Positions 13,722 to 38,440 of a DNA stretch of 64,000 bases are shown piece by piece; the first letter of the stretch is position 1; every line of letters starts with the position of its first letter. The position numbers were made by a program, and so were the translations under genes. Origin of the DNA: Candidatus Pollutiaquabacter sp. (lineage in GTDB: Bacteria; Bacteroidota; Bacteroidia; AKYH767-A; 2013-40CM-41-45); contig CANIAS010000002.1 of the NCBI GenBank assembly GCA_947465495.1, forward strand, positions 14,274 to 78,273, given 5' to 3'. A model generated the notes under the pieces. It was not told the origin of the DNA, made no database searches, and worked only from the letters and a program-made list of their open reading frames with translations.

Positions 13722-14774
13722 ATGAACTCCTCCGTAAAAATAACGCCAACCCTCAAACTCCTTCAGTTAATTGTATTTGCCAGTATCATACTATACTTTG
13801 GGAAGCCGATTTTTGTACCAATTAGCTTTTCCTTGTTGATAAGCTTCATACTCTACCCAATATGCCAAGCTCTTGAAAAAAAAGGTGTTCCTAGAGGATT
13901 AGCAATCGGATTCAATTTGCTATGGCTAAGCGCACTATTAGGACTAATCGTTTATCTCTTATTCTATCAATTCGGAAGGTTCATAAACGACTGGCCCGCA
14001 TTGAAACAAAAATTATCATTTGCTTATCATGAATTACAACATTACATATTTATAAAGACCGGCGTAACCTTACCAGAACAAGACAACTGGCTAAAACAAA
14101 CTATATCGCAATCATCAGGCAATGTGTTTAAATTCTTAAAGACGTTTATATACAATGCAGCCATCAACGTTGTGCTATTAATTCTTATACCTATACTGTC
14201 AGGATTAATTCTATATTCTAGAGAACGGTGGGTAAAAGTACTTTATATGTTGTTGCCAAATCTTGAACACCAAGAAATCAGAAACATCCTAAAAGAATCT
14301 ATCCACGCCTACTATAATTTCATCAAAGGAATGGGCACCGTATACATTGTGGTGGCAATTCTAAACTGTATTGGCTTAATCATCCTTGGAATACCACATG
14401 CCATTCTATTTGGATGCATCGCCTCTGTCCTCACATTCATACCGTACGTCGGCATCCTTGTTGCCTCCTTGTTACCAATTACAATTTCATGGCTAACTTT
14501 CGACTCCATCTGGTATCCCATAGGTGTTATCGTGATCTTTACAATAGTCCAGTACCTAGAAGCGAATGTGATCTTTCCTTTGGCAGTTAGTAGCCGACTC
14601 AGTTTAAACACCTTTATCACCATTGTTGTGATTTTAGTTGGTGGATTACTTTGGGGTGCAGCTGGCATGATCTTATTTATTCCATTCATCGGAATAATAA
14701 AGCTAATTGCCGATCGAAGCGAAAAACTCGCAGGCCTTTCGATGCTACTTGGGAACGGAAAAATTCATCCATGA
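13722..14774 (+). CDS. AI-2E family (PerM/YhhT-like) transporter
   Basis: 350 aa with about 8 TM helices and the typical AI-2E topology. Conserved FIPYVG and LLWGAAGMILFIPF segments are present. Confidence 0.75.
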   Translation: MNSSVKITPTLKLLQLIVFASIILYFGKPIFVPISFSLLISFILYPICQALEKKGVPRGLAIGFNLLWLSALLGLIVYLLFYQFGRFINDWPALKQKLSFAYHELQHYIFIKTGVTLPEQDNWLKQTISQSSGNVFKFLKTFIYNAAINVVLLILIPILSGLILYSRERWVKVLYMLLPNLEHQEIRNILKESIHAYYNFIKGMGTVYIVVAILNCIGLIILGIPHAILFGCIASVLTFIPYVGILVASLLPITISWLTFDSIWYPIGVIVIFTIVQYLEANVIFPLAVSSRLSLNTFITIVVILVGGLLWGAAGMILFIPFIGIIKLIADRSEKLAGLSMLLGNGKIHP

Positions 14775-17164: not shown

Positions 17165-17998
17165 TTAAACTGTACCAGGAAAGACGATAAGCGGAAGTCT
17201 GGTGTGATATGCCATCCTTTTAGTTAAACTTCGTTCAAAGAGTTTACGCATGAATGGCCGATGTCGAATTGTCATTGCAACCATATCCGCATCCACTTCT
17301 TCCAAATAATGATTAATGGAAGAGTATACATCAGTCCCATCCAATAACTTAAAACTTATTTTACTGAAATGGCTATCTTCACGTATACTTTCCATGAATT
17401 TCTCAATGGCATCAAATTCAAATGTGCGATCGTATTTACCACTTGTAATATGAAGGAGTATGATTTCAGCTTGCAGAACGCGAGCAAAATCGATTACCTG
17501 TTCAATATTGCCAAAATCGCCTTCCTCATAACTGGTAGCAAAAACAATACGATCAATCGTCTTCTTTGTAGACAGTTCAGGAATGGCAATAACCGGACAT
17601 GTACTATGTTCAAACACGGAAGCAGTGATGGTGCCAATCAACGCTTCGCGTAAGCCAGAGGCCCCCTTCGTACCCATGATGATTAAATCTGCGGATGATT
17701 CAATGGCAGATTTTGGAATTTCATCTTCAGCGTACCCGGCCGAAGCATGAACATTGAATTTCAAGGCTGGGTACTTTTTCAAATATCGCTTACGGACATC
17801 GCCAAGCCCATCCAGTGAATTTTTCTCCAATTCTGCATCCGAAGGAATGGCTAATGGGAGATCAGTAGCATAAATTGGCGACACGTATGAATGGTGCAAG
17901 ACAATTTCAGCCTTTAACTTTAAGCTTAGCCCGCAAGCAAAATCCAATGCATGGTCAGCATCACGAGAGAAGTCGGTAGGGACCAGTATTTTTTTCAT
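17165..17998 (-). CDS. Universal stress protein, tandem UspA domains
   Basis: 277 aa. It has MKKILVPTDFSRDADHALDFA and GTKGASGLREALIGT. Confidence 0.85.
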   Translation of the reverse strand: MKKILVPTDFSRDADHALDFACGLSLKLKAEIVLHHSYVSPIYATDLPLAIPSDAELEKNSLDGLGDVRKRYLKKYPALKFNVHASAGYAEDEIPKSAIESSADLIIMGTKGASGLREALIGTITASVFEHSTCPVIAIPELSTKKTIDRIVFATSYEEGDFGNIEQVIDFARVLQAEIILLHITSGKYDRTFEFDAIEKFMESIREDSHFSKISFKLLDGTDVYSSINHYLEEVDADMVAMTIRHRPFMRKLFERSLTKRMAYHTRLPLIVFPGTV

Positions 17999-18027
17999 AT
18001 CATTATTTTCATAAGATGAAGAGCTAA

Positions 18028-19113
18028 TTAATAATACTTGACGACTGCTATTTTCTGGAAGTCAGTCAATCGACCATTGGAAACAAATTGTATGTCTCCC
18101 TTACTTCGTAATACCATCTCAATGAGATCATCGACTGCATCAGAAATATTACGGTGGGAGCCAGGAAGAAGTTGATCCACGTGAATGGACATACCATCTT
18201 CCCGGAAATAGGCTGGTTGCACATAGTCTTTTTCAACCAACAACAACCTACATTGCCCCTCCGTAACCGCACGCCAGACCTCCTCCACGCCGGCTGCGTA
18301 ACTTCCTTTACTTACCGCTGAGGCCAGCGACAAAAGGCTTTTCTCCTCTACTTCTTGGTTAACTTTATCTAAAATAGGCTCCAACAACTTTCTTAACTGC
18401 GGTGATGTAGCATGTTCGTAATTACCCTCCACAAAACCAATGGTATTGCGCTCATTAGCAGACTGAGCTTTGATGTAGCCTAAAAACTTCTTGTCGCCCA
18501 TAAAAACGATTGGCGTATCGGAATTGCCTAACGCTTGATGAACCGCATGATCTATTAGCCGCAAAAAATTTCGTATGTTTTTTTCGTTATATGCCTTCGT
18601 ATCAAGGTATTCCCATCCTGGTAATGAATGATTATTTGTTACATCAGCGATGTTATCGGGCATATCCTTGAAAACTACCGGAAAGAAGATTTTTCCATAA
18701 ACCATAGAGGTCCGCACTCCATTCTTTGTAATAGCAACCAATAAAAACTGCTTATTCAGTTTGACGGAATAGACCAAGTCACGCACTTCAAAAGAATCGT
18801 CGACAACTACTTTTTCTGTGACGTTGAATGGCAACTGAACCAATCGAGCATGATGAGGAGAAACGTAAATAGCAAGGCCTTCAGAAAGTTGGGTATAATT
18901 GATTTCGTCCACAGTATCATGTAACCTTCTCATCATCTCTTCTGTTTTTTGTTTACTGTAACGATCATGGAGTTGACTTTGCACTTGTGATACCAAATCA
19001 ATCATATGTTCTCGATCCAACTTGAAAGCAGGATATTGAGGGTGAGTTGGGACGACAATTGAAATCGCAGGAAATTCTTTTTGACCGATCAAGTCTTTTT
19101 CGAGGAGTTGCAT
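18028..19113 (-). CDS. eRF1/Pelota-like protein lacking GGQ (a bacterial baeRF-type release-factor homolog). Hypothetical.
   Basis: 361 aa. Three segments align by eye to eRF1 domains 2-3: FLLVAITKNGVRTSMVYG ~ FGFIVIDGSGALFGTL; GFVEGNYEH...KVNQEVEEKSL ~ ISYGGENGF...NVKFIQEKKL; KGSYAAGVEEVWRAVTEGQCRLLLV ~ [23 protein letters not shown]. No GGQ is present in the equivalent loop. Confidence 0.5.
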   Translation of the reverse strand: MQLLEKDLIGQKEFPAISIVVPTHPQYPAFKLDREHMIDLVSQVQSQLHDRYSKQKTEEMMRRLHDTVDEINYTQLSEGLAIYVSPHHARLVQLPFNVTEKVVVDDSFEVRDLVYSVKLNKQFLLVAITKNGVRTSMVYGKIFFPVVFKDMPDNIADVTNNHSLPGWEYLDTKAYNEKNIRNFLRLIDHAVHQALGNSDTPIVFMGDKKFLGYIKAQSANERNTIGFVEGNYEHATSPQLRKLLEPILDKVNQEVEEKSLLSLASAVSKGSYAAGVEEVWRAVTEGQCRLLLVEKDYVQPAYFREDGMSIHVDQLLPGSHRNISDAVDDLIEMVLRSKGDIQFVSNGRLTDFQKIAVVKYY

Positions 19114-19333: not shown

Positions 19334-20098
19334 ATGAAAAAGAGACTTACTATTGATTTAATTTACAACTTGGTTTTAGCAGGACTACTATCATGCATGT
19401 TGCCTGGCTGTGAAAATGACACTGTTTATCCATTATCTACTACCAGCACTCTTAAGATTAATGTTTCTAATACGGTAAATGGAACATCTTTGCAACTGGG
19501 GCAAATGGCATACACAAACGTATCAGGAAACAATTATCAAGTTGATCTGTTACGATATTACTTGTCCAATTTCTCGCTTGTGAAATCCGATAGCAACTAT
19601 TATAACCTCCGGAATTACGACTTAATAGACGCCGAAAATGCGGAAAGTTGCAAGATCACCGGCGACAACGTTCCCAACGGGAAATACACCTACCTGTGTT
19701 TTTATGTCGGTGTGGATAGCACCCATAACAATTCCATTGATCAAACCGGCGACCTAGATCCACTGTATGGTATGTTTTGGCCCTGGAATACCGGTTATAT
19801 ATTTTTTAAGCACGAAGGGTATTATGTGGACTCTTTAGGATCGACCAATAACCTACTATTCCATTATGGAACAGCGCCTGCATTGGTTACAGTGGCCATT
19901 CCTGTTAATATTGAACTATCGGGTAGCACTTGCAGCATCGATCTGCAATTTGATTTAAATTCGGTGTATAACACACCGACCCCAATTGATTTTAACGTGG
20001 ACAATTATCATCAATCTGCCTCGGGTAGCGAACGAGATTGGATTGAAACCATGAAGCAAAATCTCTCAACCGCCTTTACCATCACCGCCGTACACTAA
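19334..20098 (+). CDS. MbnP-family lipoprotein (periplasmic copper-binding partner of di-haem peroxidase MbnH). Putative.
   Basis: 254 aa. A lipoprotein signal is present with lipobox Cys (LLSCMLPGC). It lies 8 nt upstream of a di-haem cytochrome c peroxidase, which is the canonical MbnP-MbnH pairing. The assignment rests on context and size, not on verified motifs. Confidence 0.5.
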   Translation: MKKRLTIDLIYNLVLAGLLSCMLPGCENDTVYPLSTTSTLKINVSNTVNGTSLQLGQMAYTNVSGNNYQVDLLRYYLSNFSLVKSDSNYYNLRNYDLIDAENAESCKITGDNVPNGKYTYLCFYVGVDSTHNNSIDQTGDLDPLYGMFWPWNTGYIFFKHEGYYVDSLGSTNNLLFHYGTAPALVTVAIPVNIELSGSTCSIDLQFDLNSVYNTPTPIDFNVDNYHQSASGSERDWIETMKQNLSTAFTITAVH

Positions 20099-20105
20099 TT
20101 TCAAC

Positions 20106-21155
20106 ATGGACTTTCGCAGGGTACTCTTTTTAATAGCATCGATCTACTTAGTCATAGTGGCATGCAACAAAGACGAAGTAGAATCCGTCAGTAACGGCCC
20201 TACGCCATATCAGCTTAGTATTCCGTCATCGCTGCCACCGATGAATATTCCAGGATCAAATCCACTGACCGTGGAAGGCATCGCACTCGGAAGAAAATTG
20301 TTTTACGACCCATTATTATCGGGCAACAATATCCAATCTTGTGGAGACTGCCATAATCAGGCATTCGGCTTTACAGACAACAATTTTGCACTCAGTACTG
20401 GGATTGATGGAATCGATGGAACTAGAAATTCGATGCCGCTGTTTAATTTAGGATATGCTTCTAATTTCTTTTGGGACGGTGGTGCCACCACGCTTGAATC
20501 GCAAGTTGTAGGACCGATTACCAATCCGATTGAGATGCACGAAGACCTTACCAATTGTGTCAACGAGCTTAAATCGCAACCAGACTACCCGGCTCTATTC
20601 AAAGCTGCCTTTCAAACTGATTCGATTACGATTTCTATGGTAATGAAAGCCATTGCCCAATTCGAACGCACCCTGATTTCGGGCAGCTCAAAATACGATC
20701 AGTCAGTAAAAGGACAGGTCGCGTTGACTTCTCAAGAAGAGAGCGGAAAGCTAGTATTCCTCTCTGCCGCAAAAGGCGATTGCACCCACTGCCACATTTT
20801 AGGCAGCACCTTCACCGATTTTGCCTACAAGAATAATGGATTAGATTCTATTTCAGCGGACAGTGGCCGGGCTCGTATTACACTCAACCCAACTGACCTC
20901 GGTAAATTCAAAACACCTAGTTTACGTAACATCGCGGTAACTCCACCCTACATGCACGATGGTCGATTTTCTACCTTGCAACAGGTGATAGAGCACTACA
21001 ATACCGGTTTTCATTACGCAGCCAATCTAGATCCAAATCTTCAAAATGCAGTGAAAGGTCGAATGAGCCCCCAGGAGATTAGTGATCTGATTGCTTTTTT
21101 AATGACCTTGACCGATACCGATTTTCTGTCCAATCCTGCTTACGGACATCCGTAA
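20106..21155 (+). CDS. Di-haem cytochrome c peroxidase (CCP/MauG/MbnH family)
   Basis: 349 aa. There are two CxxCH haem motifs (CGDCHNQAF and CTHCHIL) and the conserved MauG/CCP segment PSLRNIAVTPPYMHDG. Confidence 0.85.
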   Translation: MDFRRVLFLIASIYLVIVACNKDEVESVSNGPTPYQLSIPSSLPPMNIPGSNPLTVEGIALGRKLFYDPLLSGNNIQSCGDCHNQAFGFTDNNFALSTGIDGIDGTRNSMPLFNLGYASNFFWDGGATTLESQVVGPITNPIEMHEDLTNCVNELKSQPDYPALFKAAFQTDSITISMVMKAIAQFERTLISGSSKYDQSVKGQVALTSQEESGKLVFLSAAKGDCTHCHILGSTFTDFAYKNNGLDSISADSGRARITLNPTDLGKFKTPSLRNIAVTPPYMHDGRFSTLQQVIEHYNTGFHYAANLDPNLQNAVKGRMSPQEISDLIAFLMTLTDTDFLSNPAYGHP

Positions 21156-21239
21156 TTATCAATTTTTCTTCTGTTAAAAGCTCCCTATTAACTCCAGGAG
21201 CTTTTTACTATATTTCGAGTTGTTAAACATACCCTGTCC

Positions 21240-23576
21240 ATGAAAAAACACCTATTGTTGCTAGTTGTGCTGTTTTTGATCCAATCACAAAGCTACGCAG
21301 CCTGTCAGACTGGTTACACTGAGGTCATCGTTCAGATTATTCCTGACAGTTGGCCGAATGAGATTTCCTGGCAACTCAGTGAATCCGGAGGAAACATCCT
21401 TCAGAGTGGAACTTCAGAAGGAGATACACTGTGTGTGCCTGTCGGATCCTGTCTGGAGTTTGTCATCAACGACAGCTATGGCGATGGAATTTACGCTCCA
21501 GGCGGTTATTGGCTTTACGTTGATGGCATTCAAGTTGCGACTGGCTACAACTACGGCTCGCAGGATATGGTAGCTCTGAATTGTCCGCCCGGCATGCATT
21601 GCACATCGCCATTAGAAATTACCTACGGTACCCATTGGGCAACCTTCGAAGACACGTGGTTTGTATATACGGCTGACTCATCTGGCACCTATAACTTAAC
21701 CACCTGCGATAGCAACAGCTGCAACACACAACTTTGGTTATACACCAGTTGCCCGACCCTTCCTTATACGGATGGACCGATGGGATCCTACATCTACAAC
21801 GACGATAATAATTGCGGTACCCAAGCCAGTATGAATTTCACCCTGGTAGCTGGAACTACGTACCTCATTCGTATTGGCGACAACGGAGGCGACTGCTCCG
21901 ATTCAATCAATTTTAGCTTCTCTTATTTCGGACCAGTCATGGGTTGTATGGACCCCTCGGCCTGCAATTTCAACCCGCTGGCTACAGTATCCGACAATTC
22001 ATGTATTTATTACCCAAATCCGATGTGTCAAGGCCCTGACCTTCAGTTTGACTCACTGTCGTTCATCAATAGCATCTCCTTACAAACCTTCAGCGCATCT
22101 ACATGCGACGTAGCCGAAGGATGTGTGACTGGATATGGTACACGATACGTATTGTCCTTTACTTCCAAAATTAACAACATAGGGACTCAGGATTATTACA
22201 TTGGAACACCCTCGTCTCAACCAGGCATGTTCAATACCAATAATTGTCACGGACATGCACACTACGAAGGGTACGGCGACTATCGACTGTACGATTCCTT
22301 GGGAACCATTGTACCGGCAGGCCATAAAAACGGCTACTGTGTGATGGACTTATGCGGTATGGGCCAATACAACTGTGGCGACATGGGCATTTCAGCAGGA
22401 TGCTATGATGTGTATGGCGCCGGCACACAATGCCAGTGGATCGACATCACCGACGTAGCAGATGGCGACTATCGCTTGGCCATCCTCATCAATTCCCAAC
22501 ACCTCCCGGATGCGTTGGGTCATTACGAAACCAATCATCTCAACAACGCCCTTCAGATTTGCATTCGAATTACGCATAACGCACAAGGTGTTCCTAGCTA
22601 CTCTATACTTCCAAATTGTACTCCTTACGTCGATTGCAACGGAGTACCAGGAGGAGTATCAGAAACAGATTGCAATGGAATTTGTGGCGGACCTTCTGTA
22701 TACGGTGACCTTAATTCGGATGCCTTATTGAACACAGCAGATATTACTAGTTACATGGATCAAGTAGAATCCCAATTCTCTGCTACAACGTGTAATGATC
22801 TGAACGGAGACGGAGAGCTAACCATATTCGATGTAGCACAATCAAATTGGTGTTATTACGGCAATCCGAATATTCAAGGCGGCACTCACAATCATTGCCA
22901 ATTTCCGCGCAACCTAATTAGCTTCACTGACACTTCCGAATTGAGTATAGTCGCATTCGATCCTATTAACAACTACATTGATGTTGGCTTGAAAAATCCG
23001 CGCGTAGGGATCAAAGGATACCAATTTACGGTGAGTGGCATCGATGTGTTTTCTTACATCAGCATGATCAACCCATTGCAATTCCAGGCAGACGTGCGAT
23101 ACATTCCTGCTACCCATGAGGTCATTGCATTTGGCCTGAACGACTCCACGATTCCTAGATCTACATTACCACGTCCATTGATCCGTCTGTTCTACAACAA
23201 TGTAACAGATACAGTGGTTTGTATCAGTTCGATTTCTGACATCATGAACGAACGTGGGGAAGGTACCATACCCGCACTCGCAAACAACTGTCGCAGTTTC
23301 AGCACAACCAATGTAAGTTCCCTGTACAAAAACGCTGCACTGATGGTGGTTCCAAATCCTGCGAAGGACGAAGCTTACTTACACATATCAGAAGGATTCA
23401 ATCCGGGTGCTACCATCATGATGGTCGACATAACTGGAAAACAATTCCAAGTTTCTGTAGCGCAATTGCGAAAAGATTGGGTGAAATTAGACTTGAAGGA
23501 ACTTCCAAATGGAGTTTATATGATTCGAATTCTGGATGGCGATTATGCCGGTACAGCGCGAGTTGTAAAACTCTAA
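21240..23576 (+). CDS. Secreted multidomain protein with a lysyl-oxidase-like copper amine oxidase catalytic domain, dockerin-like Ca-binding repeats and a T9SS C-terminal sorting domain
   Basis: 778 aa with a signal peptide. The LOX copper/LTQ core is [18 protein letters not shown] (vs human LOX CHQHYHSMDEFSHYD), [10 protein letters not shown] (vs GHKASFCLED) and [27 protein letters not shown] (vs [27 protein letters not shown]). The dockerin-like repeats are [13 protein letters not shown] and [13 protein letters not shown]. The T9SS CTD is [14 protein letters not shown]...GVYMIRI...RVVKL. Confidence 0.8.
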   Translation: [778 protein letters not shown]

Positions 23577-24495: not shown

Positions 24496-24571
<76 letters not shown>

Positions 24572-24613: not shown

Positions 24614-24698
24614 GCCCGGATGGTGGAACTGGTAGACACGAGGGACTTAAAATCCCTTGGCCATTGCGGCCGTGCAGGTTCGATTCCTGTTCCGGGTA
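24614..24698 (+). tRNA. tRNA-Leu (anticodon TAA), type II with a long variable arm
   Basis: The acceptor is gcccgga/tccgggt, the anticodon stem aggga/tccct with loop ctTAAaa, followed by a long variable arm and a T-arm gcagg-ttcgattc-cctgt. CCA is not encoded. Confidence 0.8.
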
Positions 24699-24741
24699 CT
24701 TTAATATAGAGGTGAAGTTTGCTCTTCCAGAGCCTTCACAC

Positions 24742-27531
24742 CTACTTACCTCCTATCACCTTTTTAATTTCGTTCAGCATATTTAAGGCCTGAACAGGTG
24801 TTAGGTTGTCCAAATCAGCTTTCAAAATTTGTTCCCGTACTTGTTCTAGTACCGGATCATCCAACTGAAAAAAGCTCAATTGAAAATCCGGGTCACTAGC
24901 TGCTTTCTTTTTACTTCCAGCAGCACTGGTCGATGACAACTTACCAGCAGTAGCTGAATTCGTCGAAGCGCTGGCTGAGCTGGTCGAAGCGCTGGCTGAG
25001 CTGGTCGAAGCGCTGGCTGAGCTGGTCGAAGCGCTGGCTGAGCTGGTCGAAGCCCGACTTGCCTCCAACTGTTTCAAAATCTCACTCGCACGCTGCACCA
25101 CTTTTATCGGGATGCCCGCCATCTTCGCAACATGTATTCCGAAACTATGCTCGCTCCCACCCGGCACTAACTTTCGCAAGAATAAAACATTCGTACCTGT
25201 CTCTTTGACTGCTACGTGAAAATTACGGATTCGCTGCATCTCAGTAGCCATCTCATTCAGTTCATGATAATGAGTAGCAAAGAGGGTTTTCGCGCTGACA
25301 GTAGGATGTTCATGAATATACTCGGCAATCGACCAGGCGATGCTAATTCCGTCGTAGGTGGCTGTGCCTCGTCCTATTTCATCCAATAAGACCAGACTAC
25401 GATCAGACAAATTATGAAGAATACTGGCGGTCTCATTCATCTCCACCATAAAGGTCGACTCCCCGGAAGAGATATTGTCGGATGCGCCAACACGAGTAAA
25501 AATCTTGTCGACGATTCCAATGCGAGCTGAAGTTGCCGGGACGAAACTTCCCACTTGCGCCATCAAGGTAATTAAAGCGGTCTGCCGCAATAAAGCCGAC
25601 TTACCAGACATATTGGGTCCAGTGATCATGAGCACCTGCTGCACATCAGGATCCAGGTAGATGTCATTAGCGACAAACTTCTCTCCTATTGGCAGCTGTC
25701 TCTCAATTACTGGATGACGACCATCCTTAATGTCAATGATACGTCCTTCATTTATTTCAGGACGTACGTACCCTGATCGTGTAGCGGTTGAAGAGAACGA
25801 TTGCAGTACATCCATGCGTGACAATAAAGCGGCATTCAGCTGCACGGGCTGTATATATTCCAACAATGCGACCATTAAATCAGCAAACAAACGCTCCTCG
25901 ATGGCCAAAATCTTCTCCTCTGCTCCGAGTATCTTCTCTTCGTACTCTTTTAGTTCCGCGGTGATATAGCGTTCGGCGTTTGTCAATGTCTGCTTACGGA
26001 TCCACTCCAAAGGAACCTTGTCTTTGTGTGTATGTGTCACTTCAATGTAATACCCGAAAACATTGTTGAAGCCTACTTTCAAGGATGTAATCCCGGTACG
26101 TTCCGCTTCACGTTGCTGTATTTTCAGTAAGACATCCTTACCATGGAAGGCTATGGCGCGTAACTCATCTAGCTCATGATGGACACCGGACCGAATCACA
26201 CCTCCTTTATGGACAAGTGCAGGAGCTTCCGGGTCCAATTCGCGTACTATCCGTTCGCGCATGATTTGACATGAGTTAAGCTGATCACCAATCATCCGCA
26301 AGGAGTCCCGGTCACTGTTTAGCAGCTGTTCACGTATCCGTTCAGTCATTTCCAATGAACGTCGAAGTTGCAAGACATCTCTTGGAGATACTTTGCCAAG
26401 TGCGACCTTAGAAATCAACCGTTCCAAGTCGCCAACCTGCTTCAACGAATCAACAAGCGTTGCCGTGAACTCATCGTTTTTCAATAAATAATCTACAGCA
26501 TCCAACCGCTCCTCTATCGCTGTACGCTCCTTGAGTGGAAGCATGATCCAACGTTTCATCAGTCGTGCGCCCATCGGAGTGACCGTCTGATCGAGAACAT
26601 CGACCAGCGTAACAGCGTTCTCATTGGACGAGCCGACCAATTCAAGATTTCGTATGGTAAACTTGTCAAGCCATACATACCGATCTTCTTCCAACCTTGA
26701 AATCGCGGTGATGTGCTTCAATTGATCTTGACGTGTGTCTGAAACATAATGAAGCGCAGCTCCAGCAGCAACAATGGCAGCTGGGAATTCTTCGACACCA
26801 AAACCTTTCAATGATTTGGTACCGAAATGGCGCAATAACAATTCGCGTGTATAATCGGGTTGAAACACCCATTCATCGACTGCGTAATTATAAAACCTAG
26901 TGCCTATCCGATCTTGTAAGTCCTTCTTTTGAACACGGGAGAAAATAACCTCCGTTGGTTGAAAATTCTGCAAGAGCTTTTCCACGTAATCCATGGATCC
27001 TTGAGCTGCATAAAATTCACCGGTTGAAATGTCTACAAAAGAAACGCCAGCCACTTTCCCGTCTACATGCAGTGAGGCCAGGTAATTGTTTTTTTTATGC
27101 TCAAGAATTTTGTCGTTGTATGAAACCCCGGGTGTTACAAATTCTGTCACTCCCCTTTTAACGATTTTCTTGGTCAATTTAGGGTCTTCCAGCTGATCGC
27201 AGATAGCTACTCGCATTCCTGCACGCACCAACTTAGGCAGATACGTATCCAATGAATGGTGCGGAAATCCGGCTAACTCAATAAATGTAGCTGATCCATT
27301 GGCACGACGGGTAAGGACGATTCCAAGGATGGAGGACGCCTTCACTGCGTCCTCGCCAAAGGTCTCGTAGAAATCACCCACCCGAAACAATAATAAGGCG
27401 TCCGGATACTTCGCCTTGATGCCGTAGTATTGTTTCATGAGCGGAGTTTCCACTACCGCATTTTTTGTCTCTTCTTTCAACAAGATTTTTCGCTTCTTTG
27501 TCACTGGAAACCCAGTATGCGCAAGATACAA
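24742..27531 (-). CDS. mutS: DNA mismatch repair protein MutS with a C-terminal (ASASTSS)n low-complexity insert
   Basis: 929 aa. It has the N-terminal mismatch-binding domain PLMKQYYGIKAKYPDALLLFRVGDFYETF, Walker A GPNMSGKS and the HTH region. The true start is probably downstream of 27531 (GTG at 27504 or ATG at 27438), because 27517-27531 overlaps the divergent TrmH-family gene. Confidence 0.9.
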   Translation of the reverse strand: MYLAHTGFPVTKKRKILLKEETKNAVVETPLMKQYYGIKAKYPDALLLFRVGDFYETFGEDAVKASSILGIVLTRRANGSATFIELAGFPHHSLDTYLPKLVRAGMRVAICDQLEDPKLTKKIVKRGVTEFVTPGVSYNDKILEHKKNNYLASLHVDGKVAGVSFVDISTGEFYAAQGSMDYVEKLLQNFQPTEVIFSRVQKKDLQDRIGTRFYNYAVDEWVFQPDYTRELLLRHFGTKSLKGFGVEEFPAAIVAAGAALHYVSDTRQDQLKHITAISRLEEDRYVWLDKFTIRNLELVGSSNENAVTLVDVLDQTVTPMGARLMKRWIMLPLKERTAIEERLDAVDYLLKNDEFTATLVDSLKQVGDLERLISKVALGKVSPRDVLQLRRSLEMTERIREQLLNSDRDSLRMIGDQLNSCQIMRERIVRELDPEAPALVHKGGVIRSGVHHELDELRAIAFHGKDVLLKIQQREAERTGITSLKVGFNNVFGYYIEVTHTHKDKVPLEWIRKQTLTNAERYITAELKEYEEKILGAEEKILAIEERLFADLMVALLEYIQPVQLNAALLSRMDVLQSFSSTATRSGYVRPEINEGRIIDIKDGRHPVIERQLPIGEKFVANDIYLDPDVQQVLMITGPNMSGKSALLRQTALITLMAQVGSFVPATSARIGIVDKIFTRVGASDNISSGESTFMVEMNETASILHNLSDRSLVLLDEIGRGTATYDGISIAWSIAEYIHEHPTVSAKTLFATHYHELNEMATEMQRIRNFHVAVKETGTNVLFLRKLVPGGSEHSFGIHVAKMAGIPIKVVQRASEILKQLEASRASTSSASASTSSASASTSSASASTSSASASTNSATAGKLSSTSAAGSKKKAASDPDFQLSFFQLDDPVLEQVREQILKADLDNLTPVQALNMLNEIKKVIGGK

Positions 27532-34959: not shown

Positions 34960-37900
34960 TTACTTCTTAGAAGTATCGCCTTTTTGGAAGTCGATAACGA
35001 TTGGAGTGGCGATACAGATGGATGAATACGTACCGATCACGATACCGATCAACAGCGCGAATGTAAATCCACGAATAACTTCCCCTCCGAATACGAAGAT
35101 GGCGAGGAGTACGAAGAAGATTGTGAGCGATGTATTAATCGTTCGGCTTAAGGTTGAATTCAAGGCATCGTTGATGACCTTTTTCTGATCCTGAGAATGG
35201 TGATGAACACCGACGAATTCACGAATACGGTCAAATACCACCACGGTATCAGTCATGGAGTAACCCATAACAGTTAAGATGGCGGCGATGAATGCCTGAT
35301 CGATCTCCAGTGAAAACGGCAACACGCCGTTGAAGATAGCGAAGAAAGCGAGTACTACTACTGCATCGTGCAACAACGCCACAACGGCACCAAGACCGTA
35401 TTGCCAACGCTTGAATCGAATGAAGATGTAGATAAACATCAAAGCACAAGAAATCAAGATGGCCCATACGGCAGACGACTTGATATCGTCGGCGACGGTA
35501 GGACCGACTTTTTGAGTACTCATGACTTGGTACTGATACCCCGCTAAGGACGAAAGTCCTTCCGTAAGCTTATCCGAAACTTTTTGTTCAGCATCCGGAG
35601 AAGCATCTTCGATCAGGTATGTAGTGGTAATTTTAACCTGGTTGTTATCGCCAAAGGTTTTCACTTCAGGCGCTTTGGTCAAAGGCCCTTTTAACGCATC
35701 GATAACTTGTACCGTAGAGACTTCCTTGTCAAAACGTACAACATAGGTACGACCACCTTTAAAGTCGACACCGAAGTTCAATCCTTTCACAGCGAAGGCG
35801 CCGATACCGGCAAGGATGATCGCAGAGGAGATCATGTAATACACCTTACGGCGAGCCACGAAATTGATGTTGATGTTTTTGAAAGCACCCTTCGAGAAAT
35901 TACTCCAGAAACGAATGTCCTTGTTACGATCCGTCATCCAGTCGAAAATCAAACGAGTGATGAAAATCGCGCAGAAAAGCGACGAAAGAATACCGATGAT
36001 CAACGTGGTGGCAAATCCCTGAATAGGTCCGGTACCGAAAGTATACAGAATGATACCGAGAATAAGTGTTGTGATGTTGGAGTCAATAATTGATGAGTAA
36101 GCATGCTTGAAACCATCAGAGATGGCGAGGCGACCGCCTTTCCCAAGTGCCATTTCTTCACGTACACGTTCGAAGATAAGAATGTTCGCATCCACCGACA
36201 TACCGATGGTAAGGACGATACCGGCAATACCAGGTAAGGTTAACACCGCTCCCAAAGAAGACAGGATACCCATTACAAAGAAGACGTTGGCGAAGAGCGC
36301 GATATCCGCTACAAGTCCGGCGTTGTTATAATAAGACACCATGAACAACAGCACGAGGATCAAAGCAATTACGAAAGAAAGTAGACCAGAGCTAATAGCT
36401 TCTTTACCGAGCGTGGGACCAACTACCGTATCTTCAACGATACGTGCAGGTGCAGGAAGTTTACCTACTTTAAGAATGTTTGCCAAGTCATCAGCTTCTT
36501 CAAGAGAGAACTGACCGGTGATACTGGAGTTTCCTCCTGCAATTTCTCCTTGTACGACAGGGTATGAATAGACATATTCATCCAGGACGATAGCGATGGA
36601 CTTGCCCACGTTGTCACGGGTCAAGCGTTTCCAAACGCGAGCACCTTCAGCATTCATACTCATGCTGATCTCCCAATTATCGCTGAATTGACCCTTTTGT
36701 TTGCGCGCATCAACAATGGCTGAACCATCGAGTGGAGCCTGATTATCACGGGCTGGAACACGGATAGCGACCAACTGCAGAACACGTCCATCTTTATCAA
36801 TCGGTTTTACCGACCAATAAGGTTTAAAATCTTTAGGGAACTTGGAACGAACTTGTTCCATGGCAAAGTACGCATTGACCTTGCCTGTATCTTTCACCAA
36901 AGAGGCACCGATGACTGGTCCTTTACGAAGTTCGGATTGACCTTTTTCATTCTGACCAACGGAAGGAGTAAGTACGCCAAAGAGTGGATTCTCACGGGCA
37001 AAATCTTCAAACGTTTTTGCTGCTTTAGAAGTATCTGTCTTAGCTGCTGTATCTGTCTTAGCTGCTGTCAACTGATCTTCAAGACTTGATTTCTTCGTGC
37101 TATCAGCCATGGCGAGTGAATCTCCAGCAGCTTTAACGGTGTCGGTACTCGCCGTCATGGAATCCATCGCTATTGCAGGAGAAGCGGTTGCATCAGCATC
37201 CACCACCAACTTGAGCGCCTTGTTGGCTTCTTCCAACTTAGGATAGATATCCATGTTGTCGTAGGTTTCCCAGAATTCAAGCTTTGCAGTACCCTGCAGG
37301 AGTTTACGTACACGTTCTGGTTCTTTAATACCAGGAAGTTCAACTAGGATTCGTCCGTTCCCAAGTTTCTGAACGTTAGGCTGGGTCACACCGAACTTGT
37401 CGATACGTGTTTTGATAATTTGGTAGGTGCGATCAAAAGCAGCATCAGCTTCTTTTTTGATGACATTCTTTACTTCTTCATTGGAAGAATTAAAATTGAT
37501 GCGGTCAGAAAGTTCTTTTGTAGCAAAAATGGCGGCCAGTTTTCCGTTGGGATCCAGCTTCTGAAACTCATCCACAAAAAGTGTTACGAAATCCTTCTGA
37601 CTGTTGGCTTGAGCAGCAACAGCATTTTGCAGCGCCTTGTTAAAGGTGGCATCAGTGCTATTGTTAGCCATCGAACGAACAAGGTCAACCAAGGAAACTT
37701 CCAGGGTGACGTTCATTCCACCCTTCAAGTCAAGTCCGAGATTCAACTCATTCTCTTTACATTTCTTATACGTGAAATCGAAGAGCGGATAAACCGGTTG
37801 TGTATTGATTGAATCGAGATACGCACGTTCTTTGGCAACGTCACCTGCTGCATATTCGCGGGCATCGTTTTCGACTCCACGTGTCACCAGCGTGAAAGAC

Positions 37901-37965
37901 AGCTGATAGAGGCACACGAGGGCCAACAGAATTGCAAACAGTTTTATAGCACCTTTACTTTGCAT
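34960..37965 (-). CDS. secDF: Protein translocase subunit SecDF, a fused SecD-SecF
   Basis: It has SecD periplasmic domains and twelve TM helices with conserved SecD/SecF segments such as GLDLKGGM and GFTFALLIGIVIGTYSS. The start is probably the ATG at 37965 (MQSKGAIKLFAILL). The track ORF extends to 38046. Confidence 0.9.
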   Translation of the reverse strand: MQSKGAIKLFAILLALVCLYQLSFTLVTRGVENDAREYAAGDVAKERAYLDSINTQPVYPLFDFTYKKCKENELNLGLDLKGGMNVTLEVSLVDLVRSMANNSTDATFNKALQNAVAAQANSQKDFVTLFVDEFQKLDPNGKLAAIFATKELSDRINFNSSNEEVKNVIKKEADAAFDRTYQIIKTRIDKFGVTQPNVQKLGNGRILVELPGIKEPERVRKLLQGTAKLEFWETYDNMDIYPKLEEANKALKLVVDADATASPAIAMDSMTASTDTVKAAGDSLAMADSTKKSSLEDQLTAAKTDTAAKTDTSKAAKTFEDFARENPLFGVLTPSVGQNEKGQSELRKGPVIGASLVKDTGKVNAYFAMEQVRSKFPKDFKPYWSVKPIDKDGRVLQLVAIRVPARDNQAPLDGSAIVDARKQKGQFSDNWEISMSMNAEGARVWKRLTRDNVGKSIAIVLDEYVYSYPVVQGEIAGGNSSITGQFSLEEADDLANILKVGKLPAPARIVEDTVVGPTLGKEAISSGLLSFVIALILVLLFMVSYYNNAGLVADIALFANVFFVMGILSSLGAVLTLPGIAGIVLTIGMSVDANILIFERVREEMALGKGGRLAISDGFKHAYSSIIDSNITTLILGIILYTFGTGPIQGFATTLIIGILSSLFCAIFITRLIFDWMTDRNKDIRFWSNFSKGAFKNININFVARRKVYYMISSAIILAGIGAFAVKGLNFGVDFKGGRTYVVRFDKEVSTVQVIDALKGPLTKAPEVKTFGDNNQVKITTTYLIEDASPDAEQKVSDKLTEGLSSLAGYQYQVMSTQKVGPTVADDIKSSAVWAILISCALMFIYIFIRFKRWQYGLGAVVALLHDAVVVLAFFAIFNGVLPFSLEIDQAFIAAILTVMGYSMTDTVVVFDRIREFVGVHHHSQDQKKVINDALNSTLSRTINTSLTIFFVLLAIFVFGGEVIRGFTFALLIGIVIGTYSSICIATPIVIDFQKGDTSKK

Positions 37966-38440
37966 GGATGATAGGGAATTTAAATAAAATCGCGATTTTA
38001 AATTAATTTTAGCGTGCAAAGATAGAATTTCACAGCTAAAATCCAATTAAAAGACAAGCCAATTTCGGGGTCAGCCCAAACACCGTCATAAATTAAATAA
38101 CTATTTATTGTTCAACGCCTTAAGGCTGAGCCATGTACTTCACTGCCAGGCAATGAACGAACCGATGAATCCCTGGTTATTAAGCTGACCATCAGAAACA
38201 ATCCTACATAAAAAGCGATTACAATCAATAAATTAACGGGTTGGGGCCATTCCGAGGATCGTACCTTCGGAGTTGTTGGGGTTAAATGTTTCATCGTTTT
38301 TGCATCCAAGTTGGAGGAGCACCCATGATAATCCCGCTTTAGGTATCCATTTCAAGAGATTAGCCGTGGACTTGCCGATTGTAAGGAAACACCTGAAATA
38401 TCCGGAAGGATCACTCCTTCCTCCTTTCCGTTCAAATCGC

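Follow-up and report, generated by a model that had tools for sequence, protein, structure and literature searches.

The question raised by this locus is whether a perfect 21-bp tandem repeat inside mutS, a gene for mismatch repair, changes in length between strains and whether such changes are of consequence to the protein. The repeat lies on a stretch of 64,000 nucleotides of contig CANIAS010000002.1 of Candidatus Pollutiaquabacter sp. (positions 14,274 to 78,273 of the forward strand; assembly GCA_947465495.1), hereafter the window, in which positions are given below unless a contig is named. The reading favoured here, with a probability of roughly 80%, is that the repeat is a coding minisatellite, or variable number tandem repeat (VNTR), which is resized by slippage within a disordered tether leading to a clamp-binding motif of MutS, and that the changes in length are most likely neutral or nearly so.

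The array was delimited with Tandem Repeats Finder (TRF), by an exact search for the unit and by its codon register. It spans 92 bp on the minus strand (24962-25053) and holds 4.38 copies; TRF returned a period of 21, 4.4 copies, 100% matches, 0 indels and a score of 184, and direct reading of the sequence showed the period to be broken at bases 24961 and 25054. A preliminary description of this DNA had placed about 4.6 copies at 24958-25054; the array was real, and the limits were 5 bp too wide. Four full units were located by pattern search on the minus strand (24970-24990, 24991-25011, 25012-25032 and 25033-25053), with no further copy of the unit in the 64-kb window at three or fewer mismatches. 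The chance expectation for unit matches was 0.00 (100 shuffles), and the number of perfect 92-bp periodic stretches expected in 64 kb, calculated analytically, was about 2e-35. The array is by far the strongest tandem repeat of the window, and its copies of one unit stand head to tail and are 100% identical, as in a coding VNTR.

On the coding strand the unit reads GCT TCG ACC AGC TCA GCC AGC (ASTSSAS) and is present four times, followed by the first 8 nt of a next unit. The resulting (ASTSSAS)4 peptide, given as (ASASTSS)n in the preliminary description because it was read in another register, corresponds to residues 827-854 of the open reading frame (ORF), which are residues 810-837 of the 912-residue product. 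Register analysis and alignment of the three alleles described below identified a fifth, diverged unit, GCTTCGACGAATTCAGCTACT (ASTNSAT; 24949-24969, minus strand), which is an older copy. It is identical to the perfect unit at 15 of 21 positions, and its first 8 nt (GCTTCGAC), which match the perfect unit exactly, are included in the TRF array; a sixth 21-nt block is identical to the unit at 10 of 21 positions. Since synonymous codons differ within the unit (TCG, AGC and TCA; GCT and GCC), identity at the DNA level exists at period 21 only, which argues for duplication of entire units, following an earlier round whose copies have since diverged. Two other explanations for the array were tried. 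A gene overlapping on the opposite strand was rejected: the plus-strand frame there gives (LVEALAE)n, but no ORF of at least 20 residues spans the array. A structured RNA was also rejected, the Rfam matches being two downstream tRNAs only.

The array lies in frame within the longest mutS ORF (24742-27531, minus strand). In public gene calls the coding sequence runs on the same strand from a TTG start at 27480 to a stop codon at 24742-24744 (24742-27480; 912 residues). By sequence, the product is a bacterial MutS (MutS1) mismatch-repair ATPase, with its activity predicted. The Pfam domains MutS_I, II, III, IV and V occur in canonical order (E = 4e-38 to 7e-83), and both NCBIfam equivalogs, NF003810 (1032.9 bits; cut-off 480) and TIGR01070 (914.3 bits; cut-off 641.7), score above their cut-offs, which agrees with the gene name given in the preliminary description. 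The MutS2 and KamC profiles score below their cut-offs on this product, and both the mismatch-binding Phe-x-Glu motif (…RVGDFYETF…) and the Walker A motif (…TGPNMSGKSA…) are present in the translation. Homologues are labelled as Bacteroidota or Bacteroidia metagenome-assembled genomes (MAGs); in a scan of genome contigs the relatives among the matches listed were 57-68% identical, the best being a Sphingobacteriales MAG (68%). The GC content of the window is 43.5%. A separate, old duplication of seven residues, EEKILGA/EEKILAI, is conserved in the MutS core (peptide …KEYEEKILGAEEKILAIEE…), and in distant Bacteroidota it is still periodic at 21 nt at the DNA level (L007 4510-4550, L025 4515-4565, L029 3271-3324 and L082 4545-4590).

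Copy number was compared between near-identical strains. The 90% identity protein cluster that holds the window product has three members, of 912, 905 and 891 residues, which differ solely by full units (4, 3 and 1, respectively) and are identical outside the repeat. The longest is that of the window (P0122, on a contig of an NCBI MAG; 4.4 copies); the others are encoded by contigs L001 (ERZ28612976, MEHR18-2 scaffold_622; 3.4 copies) and L002 (ERZ27263731, k141_1927960; 1.4 copies). The three contigs are about 99.9% identical, with 14-17 single nucleotide polymorphisms (SNPs) in 20-22 kb. When the three DNA sequences were aligned over 20,175 columns, 17 columns held SNPs, 11 of them private to the window and 3 each to L001 and L002, and the sole gap was at 24962-25024. 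L001 and L002 are separated by 6 SNPs yet by two units, so that at least two length changes have to be assumed on a three-strain tree with a total substitution length of about 8e-4 per site. Two nucleotide positions (24826 and 26131) distinguish the mutS genes of the three alleles, and the proteins are unchanged outside the repeat; the unit is a multiple of 3, the frame is kept and all three products are complete. The preliminary description had suggested that the locus varies in length between strains, and had named an identical copy number with diverged units as the result that would speak against a recent change. In the related assemblies the variation was found and the latter pattern was not.

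Further alleles were sought in other collections. A 30-mer from the flank and a 29-mer common to all alleles had no match in JGI metagenome contigs; the species is either missing from that collection or different there. Protein queries with the C-terminal 230 residues and with the last 82 residues returned no near-identical fragments and no further alleles. Further samples were found through the flanking SpoU-methylase and purine-nucleoside-phosphorylase proteins in Logan, whose k=31 graphs hold every 31-mer just once and leave out k-mers with a single occurrence (PMC12424806). Two Logan contigs, L090 (ERR3761200) and L091 (SRR24319194), enter mutS from upstream and end, at their position 1, inside the array, the first after 30 array bases (…GCTTCGACC) and the second after 29 (…GCTTCGAC). 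The perfect 21-bp repeat thus fragments k=31 assemblies, and the position of the end, here one base apart, is informative on the alleles. An exact look-up of the right-hand Logan fragment expected in such a case (82 residues) gave no record.

To interpret these ends, k=31 unitigs were simulated for single alleles and for mixtures. A 1-unit or 2-unit allele alone produced no break, any allele of at least three units produced a break after exactly 30 bases, and the 1-unit allele mixed with any longer allele produced a break after exactly 29 bases. The 30-base stop of L090 therefore suggests that ERR3761200 carries an allele of at least three full units; this contig has the SNPs common to L001 and L002. 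The end of L091, a more diverged strain with 15 SNPs in 3.7 kb, is most simply explained if SRR24319194 holds the 1-unit allele together with a longer allele. It requires two successors of a single 31-mer in the reads, each at 2x or more, namely G (exit from the 1-unit allele) and C (continuation of the array).

These ends bear on the explanation that there is one true copy number, and that the perfect repeat was collapsed or expanded differently by different assemblers. In its favour, every full-length allele was taken from a metagenome assembly of short reads, a perfect array that exceeds k makes a loop in a de Bruijn graph, and the Logan contigs indeed end within the array. Nevertheless, the MEGAHIT-style assembly that gave the shortest allele (k141_…) has a top k greater than the 92 bp of the array, and the 891-residue allele was recorded on two contigs. 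The private SNPs (11, 3 and 3) indicate that the three long contigs represent different populations. Moreover, both junction k-mers at the end of L091 must occur in the reads of SRR24319194 and cannot have been made by the assembler, which weakens the case for an artefact. We consider it unlikely that assembly alone accounts for the differences, and return to the reading of the array as a variable repeat.

The segment of MutS in which the units are inserted was examined next to the conserved domains. The whole linker, from the end of MutS domain V (…ILKQLE) to the putative clamp motif, is encoded at 24883-25062 (minus strand) and has 60 residues in the window allele, of which 24 are Ser, 16 are Ala and 7 are Thr. 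Disorder is predicted for it. The match to NF003810 stops at residue 806 (…QLE) of 912, and the first unit begins at residue 810. Alignment with the crystallised construct of E. coli MutS (residues 1-800) extends to the last residue ahead of the linker; in that protein the last element of the core, a helix-turn-helix domain, is at residues 766-800, and the crystals were obtained without the C-terminal 53 residues (PMC3848065). The last 230 residues were modelled with AlphaFold2 from an alignment of 59 sequences. The mean pLDDT was a modest 59.5, and the model was used solely as an indicator of disorder. Residues 134-191 of the fragment (ORF residues 833-890), which cover units 2-4 and the remainder of the linker, had a pLDDT of 34-42 and no secondary structure, and were flanked by the last helix of the core and by two C-terminal helices at a pLDDT of 71-87. 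The linker that holds the array is thus predicted to be intrinsically disordered, and the preliminary description, which had the repeat in frame in a flexible C-terminal linker outside the core, agrees with the profile end, the construct alignment and the model.

The array lies 29 residues upstream of the pentapeptide QLSFF (24868-24882, minus strand; ORF residues 884-888), a putative binding motif for the beta sliding clamp. The motif, as Q-L-S-[FI]-[FI], was found in 122/122 close homologues (at least 68% identity). The same five letters have been published as the site by which B. subtilis MutS binds the beta clamp (bioRxiv 10.64898/2026.05.27.728225), and the window product carries this known pentapeptide in an unstructured region; by analogy, QLSFF would bind the beta clamp in this organism also. 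After the linker the order is QLSFF, then QLDDP, then two helices (fragment residues 194-205 and 213-227), which make up a C-terminal helical domain (QLDDPVLEQVREQILKADLDNLTPVQALNMLNEIKKVIGGK; 24745-24867, minus strand). This domain is the counterpart of the dimerisation/tetramerisation domain of E. coli MutS. The second stretch of a phmmer alignment paired it with E. coli …DPDSLTP.QALEWI… at a weak, non-significant score (0.2 bits, i-Evalue 7.7e+03), and no Pfam family matched the C-terminal tail even at E = 10.

The architecture is that of known MutS C-termini, with a core, a flexible linker, a pentapeptide clamp motif and C-terminal helices, and the motif is identical to that of B. subtilis. 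The beta-clamp-binding motif of P. aeruginosa MutS, 816-QSDLF-820, likewise lies in the C-terminal region (PMC5027486), and the C-terminal domain of E. coli MutS is mobile on a flexible linker (PMC3783165). The difference is in length: some 15-25 residues typically separate …LE and the motif, and about 11 do so in the aligned E. coli protein, whereas the linker has 39-60 in the species of the window and includes a live tandem array.

The array would have been created, and would be resized, by replication slippage or by unequal misalignment of sister strands at identical 21-bp units. For the allele with one unit, slippage would act on the 8-bp direct repeat GCTTCGAC, spaced by 21 bp. A propensity of the array to form hairpins or slipped structures was rejected (z = -0.17 and +0.60 against shuffles, both strands), which fits simple misalignment of repeats. 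The affected segment would be the tether running from the MutS core (domains I-V) to QLSFF and the C-terminal oligomerisation helices. As the unit corresponds to seven codons, every allele remains in frame, with core, clamp motif and C-terminal domain left intact. The tether alone would change, with 39, 53 and 60 residues between …QLE and QLSFF for 1, 3 and 4 full units, respectively. With every unit the tether gains 7 residues and about 25 Å in contour length, and by a scaling estimate the mean reach of a random-coil tether would increase by about 29% from 39 to 60 residues.

MutS-dependent repair in E. coli handles insertion/deletion loops of about 1-4 nt. A loop of 21 nt is beyond this range and would escape MutS, so that the instability of the array would be independent of the mutS product, and its location in mutS looks coincidental. 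The preliminary description had regarded repeat instability within a mismatch-repair gene as notable in itself; the instability is present, but it is probably unrelated to the function of the gene, with no sign that the alleles differ in repair.

The constraint on linker length was assessed from the spacing, in residues, between a fixed anchor and the clamp motif in the 122 close homologues. The spacing was 8-18 residues (median 11) in 119 of them, and 31, 45 and 52 in the three alleles of the window species, whose linkers, the shortest allele included, are two to five times longer than the others. In this lineage the linker was thus long even ahead of the present expansion. Across a broader set of Bacteroidota genomes, spacings of 10-20 residues predominated, with sporadic values of 26-48, which indicates that linker length is loosely constrained. 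Because the tether is rich in Ser, Ala and Thr, unstructured and of poorly constrained length across the phylum, changes in its length are most likely neutral or nearly so, and we infer that the alleles are functionally equivalent or nearly so. Weak 7-nt tandem repeats were also seen in the long mutS linkers of two unrelated Bacteroidota MAGs (L012 5484-5508 and L028 5431-5500), a hint that slippage is a recurrent source of MutS linker growth in the phylum.

The same measurements can be read in another way, in which copy number sets the reach from the core to the clamp or to the oligomerised C-terminus. The coupling of mismatch detection to the replisome, or else tetramer geometry, would then be graded, and the array would act as a rheostat, reversible and under selection, for the rate of mutation or recombination. 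The position of the array 29 residues upstream of an invariant motif would fit such a role, as would the length of the window-species linkers relative to the 119 close homologues and the apparent coexistence of alleles in one sample, SRR24319194. Repeats with a phenotype are also on record, in Salmonella mutL (6 bp; PMC2955026) and in exon 1 of human MSH3 (9 bp; PMC6598626). Set against this, the expected gain in random-coil reach is just about 29%, linker length drifts widely in other Bacteroidota, and perfect repeats vary whether selected or not. On balance we regard a selected rheostat as quite improbable. Its fuller version, by which slippage yields coexisting subpopulations with graded coupling of MutS to the replisome, hence graded rates of mutation or of homeologous recombination, in a bacterial counterpart of the MSH3 exon-1 effect, appears very doubtful.

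The human MSH3 exon-1 repeat is the nearest analogue, and it keeps alive the minority view that the tether tunes repair. It consists of 3-9 units of 9 bp encoding Ala and Pro, lies between the PCNA- and EXO1-binding regions, and has alleles associated with somatic repeat instability or expansion (PMC6598626). In both cases an in-frame repeat with polymorphic copy number encodes small residues in a MutS homologue, outside the core and near a region that binds a sliding clamp. The MSH3 repeat differs in being eukaryotic and N-terminal, in having 9-bp units of several sequence types and in overlapping the DHFR promoter/5' untranslated region (PMC6598626); that of the window is C-terminal with perfect 21-bp units, and of the two repeats that of MSH3 alone has a known phenotypic association.

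In a further reading, changes in repeat number would inactivate and reactivate MutS, as an on/off contingency locus generating mutators. In Salmonella and E. coli, mutL contains a 6-bp (x3) repeat in which the loss or gain of one unit switches MutL between functional and defective (PMC2955026), and tandem repeats in mismatch-repair genes have been proposed as switches. The mutS array resembles the mutL repeat in that copy number changes by slipped-strand events in an in-frame repeat of a mismatch-repair gene. Unlike the mutL repeat, it is placed outside every conserved domain and profile, in a predicted disordered tether, and the protein is intact in every allele. The unit is 21 bp, or 7 codons, the three observed alleles are full-length and in frame, and their proteins are identical outside the repeat despite the nucleotide differences at 24826 and 26131, as under purifying selection. 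Its assignment to the phase-variable contingency loci or to mutL-type genetic switches was rejected, the alleles being in frame and the array (from residue 810) lying past the end of NF003810 (806); a mutator switch here is scarcely credible.

The array compares best with the bacterial in-frame coding VNTRs of the class used in multiple-locus VNTR analysis (MLVA), which likewise have perfect units with a multiple of three, vary between strains, encode unstructured segments rich in Ser, Ala and Thr, and presumably arise by slippage. It is unlike typical members of that class in that its host is a housekeeping repair gene, mutS, and the segment is a tether before a clamp-binding motif. A literature search, of partial coverage, found no description of a VNTR in a bacterial mutS linker.

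Several points weigh against the reading as a nearly neutral VNTR. Near-neutrality is an assumption, and the linker of the window species is a length outlier even in the shortest allele, which could reflect selection. The binding of the clamp by QLSFF is extrapolated from B. subtilis. Perfect repeats can be given a wrong size in metagenome assemblies of short reads, the source of the full-length alleles; the mixture proposed for SRR24319194 hangs on a difference of one base between contig ends and on simulated graph rules. With these points considered, the array is most likely a genuine and currently active coding VNTR in the clamp tether of MutS, and most likely a nearly neutral one.

The locus represents a live coding minisatellite in a core gene of genome maintenance, and a useful strain marker for an uncultured lineage of Bacteroidota. 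It also calls for caution in assembly and annotation, because contigs break or change in length exactly at the array. If tether length does affect the recruitment of MutS to the clamp, the repeat would offer a graded, reversible and non-destructive modulation of repair, and its alleles would form a natural series with which to test the contribution of the long-puzzling interaction between MutS and the clamp.

Other features of the window were recorded. The sole other perfect tandem repeat is at 37031-37068, where an 18-bp unit in 2.1 copies encodes TAAKTD twice, in frame, within a SecDF-like ORF (34960-38046, minus strand); its copy number is equal in L002, with no variation there. Two tRNA genes, tRNA-Gly(GCC) (24496-24571) and tRNA-Leu(TAA) (24614-24699), are on the plus strand and convergent with mutS, with 43 bp between the end of tRNA-Leu and the stop codon of mutS; in other samples, the Logan contigs L085 and L086 break inside the tRNA-Gly gene. 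On the minus strand at 17165-19113, a gene for an eRF1-like protein of baeRF_family3 (18028-19113) adjoins one for a universal stress protein (17165-17998). Three adjacent genes on the plus strand (19334-23576) were labelled from precomputed Pfam matches on the identical genes of L001. They encode an MbnP-like protein (19334-20098), a di-haem peroxidase of the CCP/MauG type (20106-21155) and a lysyl-oxidase-like protein (21240-23576) that carries the Por_Secre_tail domain of the type IX secretion system (T9SS), and may form a copper-related module of secreted oxidases.

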